From Candidatus Shapirobacteria bacterium (lineage in GTDB: Bacteria; Patescibacteriota; Microgenomatia; UBA12405): a DNA stretch of 62,552 nt. This document shows positions 51,892-60,032 of the stretch, piece by piece. The DNA lies in the NCBI GenBank assembly GCA_041649835.1, contig JBAZML010000004.1, positions 1 to 62,552 of the forward strand. Reading direction: 5' to 3'. How positions within the stretch are numbered: the first letter of the stretch is position 1; the number at the start of each line of letters is the position of its first letter. Both the position numbers and the translations under genes were made by a program. The notes beneath the pieces were generated by a model, which was not told where the DNA came from, ran no database searches, and was given only the letters and a program-made list of their open reading frames with translations.

Positions 51892-52983
51892 TCAAAATTT
51901 TGCTAGGATTTCAGGTCTAATAATAATTGGATCAATTTGATTTGAAAATATTTCAAATGAATTATATTTTTGGATGGTAATCCCCTTTTGATCTCTTTTG
52001 GTTAATTCCGAACCGATTATATTTTGATTGCTAAATCTTTTTTGTTCCTGAGCAATATCGATTGAGTAATTTAAATTGATAAATTCGGCTAAGTGATAAT
52101 AAAAAAGAGGGGTTAAATTGTTAATTAATTCAATTTGGGTATAAAAAGCAAAAGAAGCGGTCAGACGGGGATTACACTCCAGTAGATAAACCTGATTATC
52201 TGAGACAATAAAGTCTAAACCAAAAAAACCACGATAATTTAATGGTTTTAATATTTTTTCAGAAAAATTGGTAGTGATTTGATTTATTTGTTCCTGAATT
52301 TCCACGGGTGCAAGGGAGGGCCATTGGCGTCCAACTGTGGCAAAAGGATTTTGGGTAAAATCGATTAGACCAGTATATTGAAGTGCCGGAGGACTTTGAA
52401 TTAATCCGTAACGAGTGAGACAACAATTATTTAATAAAGAATAACCTGTTAAAAGCGGCGAAAATTTGGCTAAAGTTTTTTGGGGAATAATAGTTTGAGC
52501 AATTTCATAATTATTGAAATGGTGAGTACTGTTACCTGCCCAACCAAAATGAGTTTGGATAATTAAATTTTCACCGAATTTTTCCTGGGTTTTTTTAAAA
52601 GATTCCTGATTGAATTCCGCAATTATACCCGGTACAACCGGTAATTTATTTTGTTGACATATATCGAAGAATTTAACCTTATCTTCTAAAAATCGGTTCA
52701 TAGAAGCGGCATTACTGGCATTAATCCAGTGATTTTTTAAAGTTAAATGTTCAATTTTAGCGGAAGGTTTAAAAGGAATAATGACGGGTTTTGGAAATAA
52801 TTTTATTTTTTCTTGAATATTATTTTGAGACAAAAGGAAACCGCTATTTTTTATTTTTAAATTATCTTGAAAAATAGACTGAAAATTAGGTAGCTCGGGC
52901 AAATTTATGTCTAAAAATTTGTCGACTACTAAGAAGAAAAAATCGTAACCGGAATTTTTTAATAAATCTTCTAAATGATTCAT
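51892..52983 (-). CDS. ATP-grasp carboxylate-amine ligase of unknown specificity
   Basis: LEDKVKFF, FGWAGNST loop, YRGFFGLDFIV...VYLLECNPR. Confidence 0.82.
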   Translation of the reverse strand: MNHLEDLLKNSGYDFFFLVVDKFLDINLPELPNFQSIFQDNLKIKNSGFLLSQNNIQEKIKLFPKPVIIPFKPSAKIEHLTLKNHWINASNAASMNRFLEDKVKFFDICQQNKLPVVPGIIAEFNQESFKKTQEKFGENLIIQTHFGWAGNSTHHFNNYEIAQTIIPQKTLAKFSPLLTGYSLLNNCCLTRYGLIQSPPALQYTGLIDFTQNPFATVGRQWPSLAPVEIQEQINQITTNFSEKILKPLNYRGFFGLDFIVSDNQVYLLECNPRLTASFAFYTQIELINNLTPLFYYHLAEFINLNYSIDIAQEQKRFSNQNIIGSELTKRDQKGITIQKYNSFEIFSNQIDPIIIRPEILAKF

Positions 52984-53780
52984 AATCTGGCGGTACCGGT
53001 CAACAAAATAACCGGATATTCCCCAACTTCAAAGCTTTTTCGGGCTTCATAGAATGAGGCAAGGGTTAATGCAGATTCGGGAGAAGCTCTAAATTGTTTC
53101 ATAAATTCGAGACAATTGATTGCCTGAGTGTTTTTGACGATAATTCCAATACCTTGATGTTTTTTTATTGCCTGAATAATTTCCTTTTTTAGAGGTAGAT
53201 ATTTGACACTGAGAGCGTCGGTAATAGTTTCTGTTTCTAGTGTATATTGAGGGTCAAAGCTACTACAGATAGTGGGATTACTGGCGGGTTGAGCAGCGAA
53301 AATTTTAACGCTATCGGGCATAATTTTGCTGATTCCCAAAAGGGTGGTGCCGCTGCCGACAGGAATAAAAATACTGGTGATTTGAGGTAATTGGGCTAAT
53401 ATTTCGGTGGTAATTTGACCGTAGCCGGTTTGAGCAGTAATGTCGGTTGATTGACGAAGTAGATATGATTGGTTGGCTTTTGAAAATTTGATGGCATCAC
53501 TAATGGGTTTAAGGGATTCGATAATATGTCCTTTGATAAGGGATAATTTTTTGGGATTAATGTTTGGAGATACAAAAACGGTTAAAGGGATGCTGGCCTG
53601 TTGACAGTAAAAAGAGGCTGAAATAGCAGCGTTGCCAGTAGAGGAAATTACCGCTGATTTAAAGTCATTATTAATTAAATTTTGAACTTGTAAGGGCAAG
53701 GCTCGGTCTTTGGCTGAACCGGTAGGATTTTGATCTTCTCTCTTGAAATAAATTTCATCAATTTTGGTTAAGGGTGTCAT
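52980..53780 (-). CDS. Fold-type II PLP-dependent enzyme (threonine synthase/cysteine synthase-like)
   Basis: KREDQNPTGSAKDR (PLP lysine), SSTGNAA, PVGSGTT phosphate loop, VILLTG. Confidence 0.88.
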   Translation of the reverse strand: MTPLTKIDEIYFKREDQNPTGSAKDRALPLQVQNLINNDFKSAVISSTGNAAISASFYCQQASIPLTVFVSPNINPKKLSLIKGHIIESLKPISDAIKFSKANQSYLLRQSTDITAQTGYGQITTEILAQLPQITSIFIPVGSGTTLLGISKIMPDSVKIFAAQPASNPTICSSFDPQYTLETETITDALSVKYLPLKKEIIQAIKKHQGIGIIVKNTQAINCLEFMKQFRASPESALTLASFYEARKSFEVGEYPVILLTGTARL

Positions 53781-53849
53781 ATTAGATAAATAGTTGATTA
53801 GATGAGTAGATGTGTAATAATCGAATTGATTATATTTTAACTAAATTAT

Positions 53850-54014
53850 ATGTCAGATACTAATAATAAGGTTATTTGTCCTGATTGTCAGGTAGAGATA
53901 GAAAGTGAAACTTTCGGAGTGGGAGATATTCTAGAATGTCAGGAATGTGGAACTGAGGTAGAAATCATATCAATAAATCCGTTACAATATCGTGAATTAG
54001 TTGAGGAGAAGTAA
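53850..54014 (+). CDS. LysW-like small acidic Zn-ribbon (amino-group carrier-like) protein, 54 aa
   Basis: Not in ORF track (under 60 aa). MSDTNNKVICPDCQVEIESETFGVGDILECQECGTEVEIISINPLQYRELVEEK: two CxxC pairs in the LysW pattern (CPxC...GDILxCxxCGxExEx...P.L); ends EEK rather than EDWGE. Confidence 0.82.
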   Translation: MSDTNNKVICPDCQVEIESETFGVGDILECQECGTEVEIISINPLQYRELVEEK

Positions 54015-54542
54015 GCGGTAAGCTCCATCATATTTGAAACTATTATCAGTGATTTCAAACTCTCCATAACGGACTCCCCTACCTAGTCGGGAAGAATCAA
54101 CGTAAATTACCTTGTTACCAATTTTTTCGATAACGAATAAAAGATGGTGGCCATTTTTTTGACGGATTAAATCGGCAGTTTGAATGTCATGAACATCGAT
54201 TCTTTTTGATAGAGGATGTGAGGTAAGCATGTCGGCGGAGATGCGGCGGACATCAAGATTGATAGAAAAATAGAAATTTAAGAGATGACAAGCGAGACCA
54301 GAGCAGTCGATACCTAATTGGTGTTTCTTCTGAAAATTGTAGATTTGTTGAGGACTTAAATCGATTATTTTAATATTCTCATTATTGGCAAATTCAATGG
54401 TTTTTAAGGCTAATTCTTTGGCATTTCCTTTGCCGATTAAAGTATTATCAGATGAAATTTGCTTGGGAATATTAGTGTGATACGGCAAGCCGATGTATTT
54501 TAGAATTTCCTGACGGAGTTCTTCTAGTTTAATCCGAGCCAT
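53997..54542 (-). CDS. NlpC/P60-like (papain-fold) protein
   Basis: YIGLPY...GIDCSGL...ADLI....GHH...VDSS. Confidence 0.75.
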   Translation of the reverse strand: MARIKLEELRQEILKYIGLPYHTNIPKQISSDNTLIGKGNAKELALKTIEFANNENIKIIDLSPQQIYNFQKKHQLGIDCSGLACHLLNFYFSINLDVRRISADMLTSHPLSKRIDVHDIQTADLIRQKNGHHLLFVIEKIGNKVIYVDSSRLGRGVRYGEFEITDNSFKYDGAYRLLLLN

Positions 54543-55558: not shown

Positions 55559-56883
55559 GTTTTTATATATTTTATATTAGCACCAAGGGAACAGAGCCGG
55601 TCGGCTAACTTTTCATATCCTCGCTCAATAAATTCAACATTATCGATAATACTTTCACCGTTTGCTGTCAGAGCAGCCAATGTGGCGGTGGCACCAGCCC
55701 TCAAATCGGAGACGGCGATGTGAATTGGTTTTAATTTTGAAGGACCGTATATTTTGACTCCATGAAAATATTCGAGATTATCCGATTCAGGATTAAAATG
55801 GTAGTACTCTGAGGGATTGGTGACTTCCGGATTAAAAAATTTTGTTTTGGCTCCCATCTGATTTAGAGTGCTGATATGTTGAAAACGTGAAGGAAATATT
55901 TTTTCAATAATGGAGCTACAACCAACAGATTGTGTCAGAACCAAACTAAAAATTGCTTGCCAATCGGTCATGAATCCTGGTTCGGGACCGGTTTCAATAT
56001 CAATGGCTTTTAAGTTTTTAACCCAATTTATGGAAATTTCATCTCTACCCCGAATTACTTGTGCCCCCATTAGTTCAATGATTCTTAAAAAAGTTTCAAT
56101 ATTTGTAGGTCTAATCCGCATAATATTAATTGAACCTTTGGTACATAATGCGGCACAGGCAAAGGTTACGGTTTCATTTCGGTCACCGATGATTTGATGT
56201 TCTGTTCCGTTAAGTACTGAAACGCCTTTGATATAAATTTTTTTTGGATCAGAGGTGTCCCGTTTTATCTTGGCCCCCATGTCATTTAACATTTCAATGA
56301 GATCATCTATTTCTGGCTCTAGGGCGGCATTTCTAATAACTGTTTCACCATTGGCAACAGCGGCCGTCATGATTACCACTTCGGTGACAGTGTGGGATGG
56401 TTTTGGAAATTCAAAATCGGTTGCTTGAATTCCGGAAGTAGTGAAACGTAAATGATCAGAAAACTCTTCGACATTAATATTCATTTTTTTGTAACATTCG
56501 AAAAGCCGATCAAGAGGTCTGGCACCCAATTTGTCACCACCTGGAATTGGGACGATAGCTTCGCCACAACGAGCCAATAAAGGAGCGGCGAACATAAATG
56601 AGGAACGGGAAACATTTCCGGTACCGTGTGGAACAACCGATGAGTTAATTTTATTGGTGGTGATTTCCAAGCTGTGAGTGCCGGTATAATTTATCGTTGA
56701 ACCCATTGATTTGGCGATACTTTCGGTAATATGAACATCTGATATGCAGGGAACATTGAGTAAATGAGTAGTCTCTTTGGATAGAAGACTGGCAATTATT
56801 TGTTTAAATGAAGCATTTTTGGCACCTCGGATGGAAACTTCACCATTTAGTGGTTTACCACCATTAATAATATATCGGGACAT
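55555..56883 (-). CDS. murA: UDP-GlcNAc 1-carboxyvinyltransferase
   Basis: GAKNA, PGGDKLGARP (Asp at the Cys115 position), EPEIDDL, PGFMTD, DLRAGA, RGYE. Confidence 0.93.
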   Translation of the reverse strand: MSRYIINGGKPLNGEVSIRGAKNASFKQIIASLLSKETTHLLNVPCISDVHITESIAKSMGSTINYTGTHSLEITTNKINSSVVPHGTGNVSRSSFMFAAPLLARCGEAIVPIPGGDKLGARPLDRLFECYKKMNINVEEFSDHLRFTTSGIQATDFEFPKPSHTVTEVVIMTAAVANGETVIRNAALEPEIDDLIEMLNDMGAKIKRDTSDPKKIYIKGVSVLNGTEHQIIGDRNETVTFACAALCTKGSINIMRIRPTNIETFLRIIELMGAQVIRGRDEISINWVKNLKAIDIETGPEPGFMTDWQAIFSLVLTQSVGCSSIIEKIFPSRFQHISTLNQMGAKTKFFNPEVTNPSEYYHFNPESDNLEYFHGVKIYGPSKLKPIHIAVSDLRAGATATLAALTANGESIIDNVEFIERGYEKLADRLCSLGANIKYIKT

Positions 56884-58181
56884 TATTTATTATTTTTGTA
56901 TAAATTAATAATTTTTTGAAATATTTTTAGACCATCAGAACCACCAGAACTAAAGTGTACCAGTATGTCACCAGTTTTTAGACTATTTTGGTAATGTTTT
57001 ACAATCTCTTCCGGAATAGGTAAATAAATACTACGGGGAATAATATTTAAGAAATCTTTGGCAATGAGACGGTCGGATTGTTTTATCTTGGAATTGAATT
57101 TTAATTTATAGATTACTGTTTCAGTGGCAAGTTCAAAAGATGGTAATAAAAGGTTTAAATTGGAACGATATTGCATAAATGAGGCGTGATTTTCATAAAA
57201 AACTTTTAATCTCGATTGGGGATGGGTATCTTTTATGGCTTTGAGTGCAGCACCAATTCTGTCGGCTGATTGGGCAAAATCATCGATAAAGATTATTCCT
57301 TTATTATTTCCAACCACTTCTAAACGTCTTTTTATACCTTTAAAATTTTTGAAACTTCTCTTTATTGATTCTGAAGATATCTTGAGCTTATTTGCCAAGG
57401 TTTCAACTGCCCCTAGATTTTCCTGATTATGTTTGCCTAACAACTGATTGGATATTTTGGTTTCACTGTAGGGTATTTTTTGACATTTGGCGAAACTAAG
57501 CAAAGGTAAAATTAAGGTATCATTTGAATTGTAAATTAAAAGACCATCTTTGGGGATGTTCTCTACCAATTGTTTGAAAGCATTAAAATTTTCGTTTTCA
57601 TTAGAATAACTTTCCCGATGTTCCCATTTGGCACTGGTTAGGATTAGGTATTTGACAGGGTAATATAAAAATTTAGCTTTGGTATCAAGTCCATTTATTG
57701 ATTCGTCGGCTTCGACAACTGACCAATTTGAATTGGAAAAATGGAGAGAATCTAAGCGATTAAGGCTTTGACCTCCAATCATGTAAGCAGGGTCATAATT
57801 AGCATTTTTAAGCAAATAAGTGACGGCAGCAGTAATGGTGGTTTTGCCATAAGACCCGGCAATTAAAATGGAGTTGTTCTTAATTAGGTTTTGGGAAATG
57901 TATTGAGTGGCGGAAATGTAGGGAATTTTTTGAATTTTTATATCTTCAAAATCTGTCTGAGTATTATGGAATGAAGCATAGGATGAACCGATAATAGCTA
58001 AATCAATCTGAGAATTAATCTCTGTCTGATTTATGGGAATGTTGGCTTTTTTTAGTTGTTTATTGAAAGGCGGATAGGTTTTTTCCTGATCTGACCCGCT
58101 TATTTGATGACCTTGTTTTTGTAGAGCTAAGGCAAGTGGCGCTGTCATGGAACCGGCAATGCCAACAAGGTGTATATGCAT
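56883..58181 (-). CDS. MurC-family ligase, Mpl-like (UDP-MurNAc:peptide ligase)
   Basis: IHLVGIAGS, GSDQEKTYPP (Mpl-type GSDxxxYPP), AGSYGKTT, VEADE, GIKRRLE, DDFAQ. Confidence 0.75.
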   Translation of the reverse strand: MHIHLVGIAGSMTAPLALALQKQGHQISGSDQEKTYPPFNKQLKKANIPINQTEINSQIDLAIIGSSYASFHNTQTDFEDIKIQKIPYISATQYISQNLIKNNSILIAGSYGKTTITAAVTYLLKNANYDPAYMIGGQSLNRLDSLHFSNSNWSVVEADESINGLDTKAKFLYYPVKYLILTSAKWEHRESYSNENENFNAFKQLVENIPKDGLLIYNSNDTLILPLLSFAKCQKIPYSETKISNQLLGKHNQENLGAVETLANKLKISSESIKRSFKNFKGIKRRLEVVGNNKGIIFIDDFAQSADRIGAALKAIKDTHPQSRLKVFYENHASFMQYRSNLNLLLPSFELATETVIYKLKFNSKIKQSDRLIAKDFLNIIPRSIYLPIPEEIVKHYQNSLKTGDILVHFSSGGSDGLKIFQKIINLYKNNK

Positions 58182-58183
58182 AT

Positions 58184-58786
58184 CTATTGATTATATGACA
58201 ACCACTGCCCTTGAGTAAAATACTGGAATCCTGGGAAATTTCTTTTGTAGTAGCCAAGCTTGGTTTTGGCATTAAAACGTCCCAAGTAACAATACTTTAA
58301 CTTTGAATTAAAACTATCAGTAACTAACTGGAGGGAGAGTCTAATGGGTAAATCATTGTGAGCTAATTTGGGATTATAAAAAACATAGGCTATATGAGAG
58401 ATATTTTTATCGATATAGCAAATTGAGTAGGCACAAATTTGCTTATCCTGGTCATACCATTCATATAGATAGTTAAAAATATGATTGATGAATACGGTTT
58501 TTATTGAGGATACTGGGAATTCCCAACCCAATTCTTTGACCCAACTGACAAGTTGTTTTTGAATTTTGGGAGTATATAAAAACTCAGATAGAGGAATTAG
58601 TTTGTAGGTAAAATTTTCGGTTTTTTTGATAATTCTTCTGTTTTCTGATGATAATTGAAATAAATTCAAATTGCATCGAGAACTGGAATTTTCATCAATG
58701 TAAAAAGTATGTTTGGAATTTCGTTGTGGTAAAAGACCATTTTGATAATTTTCTTCAATCGAATGATCGTTTTGGATATTATACAT
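58184..58786 (-). CDS. Bpt/ATE-like aminoacyl-tRNA-dependent transferase
   Basis: SR..LNLFQLSSENRRIIKK, YVFYNP.L...L, YCYLG....GYYK..F align by eye with the ATE_N/ATE_C pattern of Bpt. Start moved to MYNIQ, overlapping the murE stop. Confidence 0.65.
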   Translation of the reverse strand: MYNIQNDHSIEENYQNGLLPQRNSKHTFYIDENSSSRCNLNLFQLSSENRRIIKKTENFTYKLIPLSEFLYTPKIQKQLVSWVKELGWEFPVSSIKTVFINHIFNYLYEWYDQDKQICAYSICYIDKNISHIAYVFYNPKLAHNDLPIRLSLQLVTDSFNSKLKYCYLGRFNAKTKLGYYKRNFPGFQYFTQGQWLSYNQ

Positions 58787-60032
58787 TTTGAGATTTAAGC
58801 CGAAAGGCAGTTCTAAAAGCTTCGGCTTCTGACCAGGGATATTCAGTGGAGCCATGAAGAATACTAGTTTCATGACCTTTGCCACAGGCGATAATAGTGT
58901 CCCCTGCTTTGGCGATTTTAATTGCTAGGTTGAAGGCATCCTGACGGTTGGGAATATTGGCATAATGAAATTTACTTGGGTCGGTAATAATCGGATTCAA
59001 TGAATCAATTAAAATTGATTTTTGAAGATTAATCCCGGAAATTATTTGTTGATTTATATCTTCGACTTTTTCATTTCTGGTATCGTCAGCAGTAATAATG
59101 GCAATATCTGACAATTCAGATACATTTTTTCCCATTATGGGCCTTTTACTTTTGTCCCGGCCACCGGTAGCTCCAAAAATAACAATTATTCTACCTTTGG
59201 TAGTGAGACGAAGAGAGGAAAGGGTAACCAAAAGAGCGTTGGGAGTATGGGCAAAATCAATGATTGTCTTTAGATGAAGACTGTTTTCAATTATTTCTCG
59301 ACGACCTTTAGTTTCGGGAAATTTGATAATTGTTTGAGAGAATATTTTTGGATCAAGGTTTAATTTTGAAAATACAGCAAAACTAGCCAGAATATTATAG
59401 ATTTGATATTCATAATTACTGTCGGTAGTTAGCTTATGATCATTTACGGTAAAGTTTAGGGTATTGGAATCGATTTCTATATTTTTGGCAGTAAAATCGG
59501 ATTTATTTTTTATACTATATGTTGAAACCGGAATAGTAATCATTTTACTTAGTGCCTGATATTGAGAGTCATCACGGTTAATGACACCGAAGTCAGATTG
59601 TGAAAAGAGTTTGGCTTTGGTAGCGGTGTAATTTTCAATTGTTTTGTGGTAATCAAGGTGCTCGTGAGAAATATTGGTTATCAAACTTATTTTAAAATGA
59701 CAGCCAAAATATCGATATTGATCAATGGCGTGTGAGGTGACCTCGCAAATGACATGGGTATAACCATTTTTTTGGTAATCCAAAAACATTTGTTGAAGTA
59801 TTTTGGGATCAGGACTGGTGGTGTGTAGGCCAGGAGAACTTATGGTACTAATGACTCCACATTTTATACCGCTGTTTTCCAATAGTTTTTGTAATAAGGT
59901 ACAGGTAGTAGTTTTACCGTCAGTTCCGGTGACTCCAATTAGAATAAGTTTACGGCTAGGAAATTTAAAATATAGATTCCAAAATATGCTTTGAGGTAAG
60001 TGCCAAAGGAGATTTTTTAATTTACGAATCAT
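58779..60032 (-). CDS. murE: UDP-MurNAc-dipeptide--diamino acid ligase MurE
   Basis: GVTGTDGKTT, CEVTSH, TNISHEHLDYH, IDFAHTP, FGATGGRDKSKRPIMG, DDTR, GKGHE. Confidence 0.9.
   Translation of the reverse strand: MIRKLKNLLWHLPQSIFWNLYFKFPSRKLILIGVTGTDGKTTTCTLLQKLLENSGIKCGVISTISSPGLHTTSPDPKILQQMFLDYQKNGYTHVICEVTSHAIDQYRYFGCHFKISLITNISHEHLDYHKTIENYTATKAKLFSQSDFGVINRDDSQYQALSKMITIPVSTYSIKNKSDFTAKNIEIDSNTLNFTVNDHKLTTDSNYEYQIYNILASFAVFSKLNLDPKIFSQTIIKFPETKGRREIIENSLHLKTIIDFAHTPNALLVTLSSLRLTTKGRIIVIFGATGGRDKSKRPIMGKNVSELSDIAIITADDTRNEKVEDINQQIISGINLQKSILIDSLNPIITDPSKFHYANIPNRQDAFNLAIKIAKAGDTIIACGKGHETSILHGSTEYPWSEAEAFRTAFRLKSQNV

Follow-up and report, generated by a model that had tools for sequence, protein, structure and literature searches.

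The window analysed here is a contig of 62,552 nt (JBAZML010000004.1, forward strand) from a Candidatus Shapirobacteria bacterium of the Patescibacteriota (assembly GCA_041649835.1), and our subject is a short open reading frame (ORF) in it together with two enzyme genes that accompany it within the division and cell wall (dcw) gene cluster. The ORF codes for a protein of 54 residues, MSDTNNKVICPDCQVEIESETFGVGDILECQECGTEVEIISINPLQYRELVEEK, which contains two CxxC pairs, has 13 acidic residues against 3 basic ones and shows a calculated isoelectric point of 4.05. It diverges from the gene of a fold-type II pyridoxal phosphate (PLP) enzyme across a short spacer, and its final 18 nt are shared with the 3′ end of a gene for an NlpC/P60-like protein, which also overlaps the stop of mraY. 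The PLP gene is in turn overlapped by 4 nt by the gene of an ATP-grasp ligase, directly after which comes ftsW. The original prediction, made from the sequence letters, had described the ORF as an unannotated LysW-like carrier ending in lysine. The coordinates, length, CxxC pairs, acidity, divergent layout and 18-nt overlap that it gave are all borne out by the sequence; the gene is, however, not new to the databases, as homologues are already named 'lysine biosynthesis protein LysW' by JGI and NCBI, a name to which the evidence below gives no support. We refer to the small gene, the PLP gene and the ATP-grasp gene as the module and collect the coordinates of all features in Table 1.

Despite its size, the small ORF is a real, conserved gene under strong purifying selection. 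A search of 5.8 billion protein clusters returned 36 homologue clusters (at 90% identity), nearly all of 54-55 residues and all 36 with the C-terminus EL[VI]EEK, and 50 of the 61 related genomes, all from the same order, carry the gene. When compared with eight relatives, it shows a proportion of synonymous differences of 0.51-0.88 and of non-synonymous ones of 0.09-0.29, with a pairwise ratio of non-synonymous to synonymous substitution rates (dN/dS) of 0.05-0.18 where computable, synonymous sites being near saturation. Together, the EEK-ending clusters, the occurrence among relatives and the dN/dS values place the ORF far beyond chance.

Table 1. Coordinates of the features discussed. Positions are those of the window unless a contig (C) of the same genome or a locus (L) or contig of another genome is given.
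Feature	Position	Strand	Length	Basis
LysW-fold zinc-ribbon protein, tail LVEEK	53850..54014	+	54 aa	PF21344, PDB match, homologues, dN/dS
Fold-type II PLP enzyme, serine-racemase/ThrC-like	52980..53780	-	266 aa	PF00291, E 6.5e-38
ATP-grasp ligase	51892..52983	-	363 aa	PF02655; weakly PRK06524
Cytoplasmic NlpC/P60-like protein	53997..54542	-	181 aa	weak Pfam hit, E 0.068
Overlap of small and NlpC/P60-like genes	53997-54014		18 nt	
Divergent intergenic spacer	53781..53849		69 nt	consensus scan only
Promoter-like pair TTGATT-16-AATAAT with TG	53794-53821	+		pattern match only
Promoter-like pair CTGACA-16-TATAAT	53856-53829	-		pattern match only, 11/12
MurC-like ligase	56883-58181	-		201 bits, murC cut-off 335; Mpl 154 bits
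Arginyl/leucyl-tRNA-protein-transferase-like protein	58184-58885	-		ATE_C, E 4e-5; Bpt/ATE NCBIfam
Ddl (window's genome, G000)	C13:25012-25893			
MurF-like ligase (G000)	C13:27072-28283			
FolC-type protein (G000)	C14:16679-18061			322 bits
Weakly RimK-like ATP-grasp (G000)	C36:1093-2187			43.8 bits, cut-off 143
MurD beside the module in L036	L036:6841-8286			murD model from position 77 on only, 257 bits
Amidohydrolase and PgeF in L036 (complete genome G111)	L036:3772-6098			PRK09061-like, 162 bits (amidohydrolase)
Module-less dcw site L035	G031:C4:86000-105000			

The small protein is a relative of LysW and not a generic zinc ribbon, as follows from its match to the LysW globular domain of Pfam (PF21344; residues 9-49, 35.9 bits, cut-off 27) and from the PDB, where a profile of the 36 homologues finds LysW from Thermococcus kodakarensis (5k2m_E) and Thermus thermophilus (3wwl_A) as best matches (E 1e-8), followed by RNA polymerase subunit 12 (E 2e-3). 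The curated equivalog models, which describe full-length LysW, fall short because of the tail: TIGR01206, which the original prediction had named as a check, does match, with 38.6 bits, but stays under its cut-off of 53.2, and NF041070 reaches 18.4 bits against 75. LysW/AmCP carriers end in EDWGE, and their LysX/ArgX ATP-grasp enzymes ligate the amine of a substrate to the γ-carboxyl of the terminal Glu; to our knowledge, the characterised relatives of LysW are all covalent carriers loaded on the last residue. The EDWGE motif with its end Glu is not present in the window protein, which terminates in LVEEK, with an invariant Lys.

This lysine marks a whole subfamily. When 1.84 billion representative proteins were searched with a profile, 462 matched, about 115 of them being short. 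Among these short ones, 52 end in Lys (41 in EEK and the others in VEK, DEK, ETK, EQK, SEK, EDK and the like), 11 end in the canonical WGE, and the remainder carry long acidic tails. The last four positions of the Lys-ended set read glutamate or a hydrophobic residue (E/h), E, E and K, with K in 52/52. When the 36 close homologues are included, 69 of 82 Lys-ended proteins have exactly 21 residues after the last Cys, as does the window protein, five fewer than the 26 found in all 11 WGE-type proteins. Identity within the Lys-ended set falls to about 35%. By sequence comparison, the Lys-ended form is thus a large, old and divergent subfamily with a tail of fixed length, as would be expected of a residue delivered into an active site. 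No protein in which the small domain is naturally fused to an enzyme was found among the profile hits, the long ones being multi-zinc-ribbon proteins (DZR, DUF7351, Trm112p-like, DUF4379) with neither a PLP nor an ATP-grasp domain. Both the LysW likeness and the non-canonical Lys terminus put forward originally were therefore upheld, and in place of the competing outcome, a generic zinc ribbon with a variable C-terminus, we find LysW as the best match and a terminal Lys that does not vary.

The three genes travel together. Of the 61 relatives, 50 have the small protein, 51 the ATP-grasp enzyme and 51 the PLP enzyme, and these are the same genomes barring cases at contig ends; the PLP enzyme, in particular, occurs in the same relatives as the small protein save for three in which the small gene is missing or cut by a contig end. 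All three are missing from all ten genomes of one family (f2) and from genome G031, which belongs to the family of the window's genome and whose dcw site (L035) lacks both the module and ftsW and has the order murE-mraY-NlpC-like-gap-murG. All 14 loci fetched from relatives share the arrangement mraY-(NlpC-like or nothing)-[small gene, opposite strand]-PLP-ATP-grasp-ftsW, followed, to the extent that the fetched DNA covers them, by murG, ftsA and ftsZ. Co-distribution with the ATP-grasp gene, the absence of which had been named as grounds for giving up the idea, is accordingly near complete, and the cell wall context that had been proposed is supported by the placement of the module within the dcw cluster. 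Likewise, the neighbours (mraY, NlpC/P60-like, PLP, ATP-grasp, ftsW, murG, ftsA and ftsZ) agree with the statement that no lysine or arginine genes lie nearby: no LysZ-, LysY-, LysJ- or LysK-type gene is among them, in a comparison that covered the locus and was not extended to a genome-wide search.

The same association extends across the phylum. In a sample of 401 genomes, the small-protein profile gave 53 hits, and 20 loci were opened. All 16 opened loci with a Lys-ended copy (EEEK, VEK, DEEK, NEEK, IEK, DEGK, NLGK) have a PLP gene no more than about 1.2 kb away, and in all but one of them it is the immediate, divergent neighbour. The ATP-grasp gene is usually there too (in all but one), adjoining or a few genes off, and dcw genes are present where the flank sufficed; in L047, L051, L052 and L055 the ATP-grasp gene is either separated by a few genes or could not be found within the stretch fetched. 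The tightest linkage of the small gene is thus to the PLP gene, above that to the ATP-grasp gene. In the fetched stretches of three WGE-ended loci and of one DDFF-ended locus, a PLP or ATP-grasp gene was not found. The order NlpC-like-MurD-[small gene]-PLP-ATP-grasp occurs at another eight loci, which come from Gottesmanbacteria and other Microgenomates. This Patescibacteria-type order is found, at 37-39% G+C, in three public metagenome-assembled genomes titled 'uncultured Gammaproteobacteria' (L060, L061, L062), which are probably mislabelled bins. Some Patescibacteria encode a canonical, EDWGE-ended LysW (L040 in G132, L043 in G333 and L054 in G258), not beside PLP or ATP-grasp genes, and two of these genomes, G132 and G333, have both kinds of LysW-like protein.

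The PLP enzyme is matched best by curated ThrC-like models, then by those of Ser/Thr dehydratases and SbnA, and CysK models match as well. Its closest solved structures by sequence are serine racemases (3e-8), followed by CysK and ThrC, and a Foldseek search with its AlphaFold (AF2) model (predicted local distance difference test, pLDDT, 94.6) recovers serine racemase, TdcB, threonine synthase (ThrC) and the PLP-dependent aspartate racemase 5ybw at template modelling (TM) scores of 0.83-0.87. Its structural neighbours are thus racemases and, equally, TdcB and ThrC, the latter likewise having the S-T-G-N motif. Across the family, the PLP lysine K24 (TGSAKDR) is conserved, a short length of 262-274 residues is kept, and the Asn loop, S46-S47-(T45/S7)-G49-N50 of the motif SS(T/S)GNAA, is invariant except for T/S at position 48, which we take to be the site of the serine racemase re-face base. 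Fold type II PLP enzymes require a free α-amine on their substrate and bind its α-carboxylate by the Asn loop; this carboxylate-binding loop is intact here.

ATP-grasp enzymes couple a carboxylate to a nucleophile via an acyl phosphate. The original prediction had noted the adjoining ATP-grasp ligase and had cited LysX/ArgX as the established enzymes. The ligase is there and is co-distributed, but it is not like LysX/ArgX: the protein matches the rimK_fam model with an E-value of only 0.051, and the top Foldseek matches of its AF2 model (pLDDT 95.3) are PurK, biotin carboxylase and PurT, at TM scores of about 0.6 and about 13% identity, with no LysX or RimK among the top 50. On these sequence and model comparisons, the ligase is not of the LysX/ArgX type and belongs to an uncharacterised family. 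The sole RimK-like gene of the window's genome falls well short of its model (Table 1) and is unlinked to the module.

The module fills the interval between mraY and ftsW, the usual position of murD. In the window's genome, which is 99.7% complete, MurD, the glutamate racemase MurI and a class-IV aminotransferase (Aminotran_4) were not found. The best matches to the MurD model (TIGR01087, cut-off 212 bits) are MurE with 88 bits and the MurC-like ligase with 63, and a profile of the genome's own Mur ligases finds four Mur-fold proteins only, typed by NCBIfam as MurC-like, MurE, MurF-like and FolC. The MurC-like ligase is the only MurC-type protein of the genome and scores far below the murC cut-off (Table 1), in contrast to the MurC of a lineage that keeps MurD (L036), which is canonical (425 bits). 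Among the 61 relatives, MurD exceeds its cut-off in five genomes, each a member of the module-less family f2; none of those that have the small gene, 50 in number, is among them.

For the phylum, we compared the 41 genomes with the module, 25 of which were assigned by profile hit and family membership and not by an inspected locus, with the 360 others, by Fisher tests that ignore phylogeny. MurI is encoded in 3 of the 41 (7%) as against 159 of the 360 (44%; p 1e-6), and MurD in 18 (44%) as against 294 (82%; p 5e-7). A D-amino-acid aminotransferase, which we considered as an alternative source of D-glutamate (D-Glu) behind this pattern, was rejected, Aminotran_4 being found in 4 of the 41 and 62 of the 360 without a significant difference. 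The contrast for MurI recurs within families f58, f36 and f83, where module-less members have MurI and members with the module are mostly without it. Genomes without the module in which murI and murD are immediate neighbours number at least 20, and every opened locus that keeps MurD has a Mur ligase immediately next to the module (in L036 it is typed as MurD, in the eight Gottesmanbacteria-type loci it is similar to the MurD of L036, and in the rest it is untyped). The module thus takes the usual place of murI beside murD, and murD is also gone in some lineages, the window's included. Where MurD is retained together with the module, it scores lower than usual (E 1e-59 to 1e-77); in L036, the murD model matches only from position 77 on, which indicates that the N-terminal, UDP-substrate-binding domain is divergent. 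The phyletic pattern is supportive but not conclusive, given the uncorrected phylogeny and the 171 module-less genomes of the 360 that have neither MurI nor Aminotran_4.

In L036, an amidohydrolase gene and the gene of the peptidoglycan editing factor PgeF stand between mraY and the NlpC-like gene, MurD and the module. We considered both as possible members of the module and rejected them, as they were not found in the other loci or in the window's genome.

The NlpC/P60-like gene is a frequent neighbour. The gene and its overlap were predicted correctly, but the family assignment is weak by Pfam. Homologues accompany the module in families f1, f3 and f7, as well as at several of the phylum-level loci and at all 8 of the Gottesmanbacteria type; as an obligatory fourth member of the module it was rejected, since it was not found in the fetched stretches of families f5 and f6. 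In the spacer between the small gene and the PLP gene, a promoter-like pair is found on either strand by pattern match (Table 1), the one on the minus strand reaching 7 nt into the start of the small ORF, which suggests that the PLP, ATP-grasp and ftsW genes can be transcribed from a start of their own inside the dcw cluster. Further along, between murE and the MurC-like gene, the window encodes an arginyl/leucyl-tRNA-protein-transferase-like protein, homologues of which hold the same position in most related loci; it is possibly a transferase of the Fem-like, tRNA-dependent kind, with the wall peptide as its substrate.

The LysW fold, the invariant Lys at the end of a tail of constant length, the co-distribution of the three genes, their placement in the dcw cluster and the anti-correlation with MurI and MurD together support a role at position 2 of the stem peptide, where D-Glu is incorporated. 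The explanation that we favour, tentatively and at somewhat less than an even chance, is that a LysW-fold protein has been repurposed as a carrier-type partner of the PLP and ATP-grasp enzymes in this peptidoglycan step, replacing MurI and, in the lineage of the window, standing where MurD has been lost. How it would operate is conjectural in each of its parts, from the carrier role, the identity of the substrate and the atom of attachment to the epimerisation and the release. The acidic zinc-ribbon body would dock on each enzyme, and the short tail of fixed length would place the terminal Lys in the active site. The ATP-grasp enzyme would activate an acidic amino acid at its side-chain carboxyl, most likely the γ-carboxyl of L-Glu, and couple this carboxyl to the ε-amine of Lys54; the α-amine and α-carboxylate of the tethered residue would stay free, and the racemase-like PLP enzyme could invert it. 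The D-residue would then be freed, perhaps by the NlpC/P60-like amidase where present, or passed to MurD or MurE. In lineages without MurD, residue 2 could be joined to UDP-MurNAc-L-Ala by the ATP-grasp enzyme itself, or the MurC-like ligase could add a dipeptide. The reversed polarity of this scheme, with the carboxyl on the cargo and the amine on the carrier, is plausible, mainly because the PLP partner needs a free α-amine. The full version, in which a LysW-fold carboxyl-group carrier is loaded by the ATP-grasp enzyme with the γ-carboxyl of L-Glu on its Lys, the PLP enzyme epimerises the tethered residue and D-Glu goes to the stem peptide, so replacing glutamate racemase in many lineages of the candidate phyla radiation (CPR) and permitting the loss of MurD in Shapirobacteria-type ones, is possible, but we hold it to be doubtful.

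Several observations weigh against the D-Glu explanation. About 44% of the module genomes retain a (divergent) MurD, so that the module is not simply a substitute for it; a plain replacement of MurD, which we considered and rejected, holds in the window's order and fails phylum-wide, where the 18 module genomes with MurD keep it, divergent, by the module. Nor is a lack of MurI peculiar to genomes with the module, since the 171 module-less genomes mentioned above are likewise without it and without Aminotran_4, and the comparison of 41 with 360 genomes is uncorrected for phylogeny. The fold neighbours of the ligase, PurK, biotin carboxylase and PurT, activate bicarbonate or formate and not amino acids, so the loaded group could be something else. 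Finally, the NlpC/P60-like gene was not found in the fetched f5 and f6 stretches, where mraY abuts the small gene, and racemisation of a free substrate needs neither ATP nor a carrier, which makes the logic of tethering a conjecture.

This last point also speaks for an alternative that we consider unlikely but the best of those remaining, namely that the zinc ribbon is a non-covalent structural or regulatory subunit, whose terminal Lys plugs or completes an active site (by a salt bridge to a phosphate or a transient PLP aldimine) while the substrates remain free. It would fit the tight linkage to the PLP gene, kept even where the ATP-grasp gene is distant or was not found in the stretch, as in L047, L051, L052 and L055. 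On the other hand, fold and acidic body match a family whose known members are all covalent carriers, attachment sites typically show this kind of strict invariance of a single terminal residue at a set distance, and the three-way co-distribution with an ATP-dependent ligase fits loading. Less probable still is a role in another building block of the wall, be it a diamino acid made by SbnA-like β-replacement, with the Lys ε-amine as nucleophile, or a D-amino-acid branch on a Lys ε-amine as in Enterococcus faecium, the EEK tail mimicking a stem that ends in ...Glu-Lys. The PLP enzyme does match SbnA, CysK and ThrC models, and an ATP-grasp enzyme that acylates the Lys ε-amine of a wall precursor is known (Asl of E. 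faecium), but the murD/murI slot and the anti-correlation with MurI indicate position 2, and no dehydrogenase or other enzyme that would finish a diamino acid is conserved in the module.

A polarity like that of LysW, RimK and tubulin-tyrosine ligase (TTL), in which the ATP-grasp enzyme would activate the α-carboxylate of the terminal Lys and add the amine of an amino acid, to be processed in N-protected form, we regard as improbable. It has in its favour that the known ATP-grasp enzymes that modify a C-terminus (LysX, RimK and TTL) all activate the carboxylate of the protein and that the E-E context resembles the acidic substrates of RimK and TTL; however, the PLP enzyme depends on an external aldimine, which an N-acylated amino acid is unable to form, a Lys side chain invariant across proteins of about 35% identity would be superfluous if the α-carboxylate alone mattered, and the ligase is not RimK-like. 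An ordinary LysW/ArgW of lysine or arginine biosynthesis, as the database names and the LysW domain match would have it, is scarcely credible, being contradicted by every defining feature except the fold, with scores that miss the cut-offs of TIGR01206 and NF041070, neither EDWGE nor a Glu at the end, no adjoining LysX-type ligase, dcw genes as neighbours, and canonical WGE-type LysW proteins of other Patescibacteria that are not next to PLP or ATP-grasp genes.

Full-text literature searches returned no description of a Lys-ended LysW-like protein or of the three-gene module, which shares features with several known systems. The closest is that of LysW/ArgW with LysX/ArgX (Thermus, Sulfolobus, Thermococcus, and AmCP of Streptomyces), alike in the zinc ribbon, the acidic body, the length of ~54 residues, the flexible tail and the genetic coupling to an ATP-grasp ligase and amino-acid enzymes, and probably alike in its mode of action. 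It differs in that the module has a tail of the form h-E-E-E-K, 5 residues shorter, in place of EDWGE, a ligase that is not RimK/LysX, a fold-II PLP enzyme for the follow-up reaction in place of LysZ/Y/J/K, and a dcw context; if the small protein is a carrier, its polarity must differ as well, with the amine on the carrier and the carboxyl on the cargo. The biotin carboxyl carrier protein with biotin carboxylase (and, similarly, lipoyl carriers) also presents a group borne on a Lys ε-amine, in that case to an ATP-grasp enzyme of the biotin carboxylase/PurK type. There, however, the Lys lies in a β-hairpin of a barrel-sandwich fold and bears a permanent cofactor attached by a separate ligase, whereas in the module it is a zinc ribbon that ends in the Lys, and a cofactor ligase is not among the genes.

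With MurI and MurD, the module shares the genomic slot, and it is phyletically complementary to the former and partly to the latter; that other routes to D-Glu at position 2 exist is exemplified by MurD2/MurL of Xanthomonas, where L-Glu is added and then epimerised. Unlike these, the module has no homology to MurI, MurD or MurL and uses a PLP enzyme, an ATP-grasp enzyme and a small protein. Asl and aspartate racemase of E. faecium likewise pair a racemase with an ATP-grasp enzyme that couples the side-chain carboxyl of a D-acidic residue to a Lys ε-amine in wall synthesis, but there Lys3 of the UDP-MurNAc-pentapeptide serves as acceptor, without a protein partner, and the racemase is PLP-independent. 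RimK with ribosomal protein S6 and tubulin-tyrosine ligase resemble the module in that an ATP-grasp enzyme acts on an acidic protein C-terminus, and differ in extending an α-carboxylate, with no PLP partner and no wall context.

The synthesis of peptidoglycan precursors is among the best-charted bacterial pathways, and MurI and MurD are held to be near-universal and are drug targets. Against this background, a large part of the CPR/Patescibacteria appears to run the D-Glu step by an unrelated module centred on a small protein. If the reversed-polarity carrier is true, it would represent a second chemical class of LysW-type carriers, the first such carrier in wall synthesis and a case in which PLP chemistry takes place on an amino acid tethered to a protein. 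A systematic error of annotation, the name 'lysine biosynthesis protein LysW' in genomes without lysine synthesis, would be corrected as well, and the carrier would help to explain how D-glutamate is supplied in organisms of minimal metabolism.

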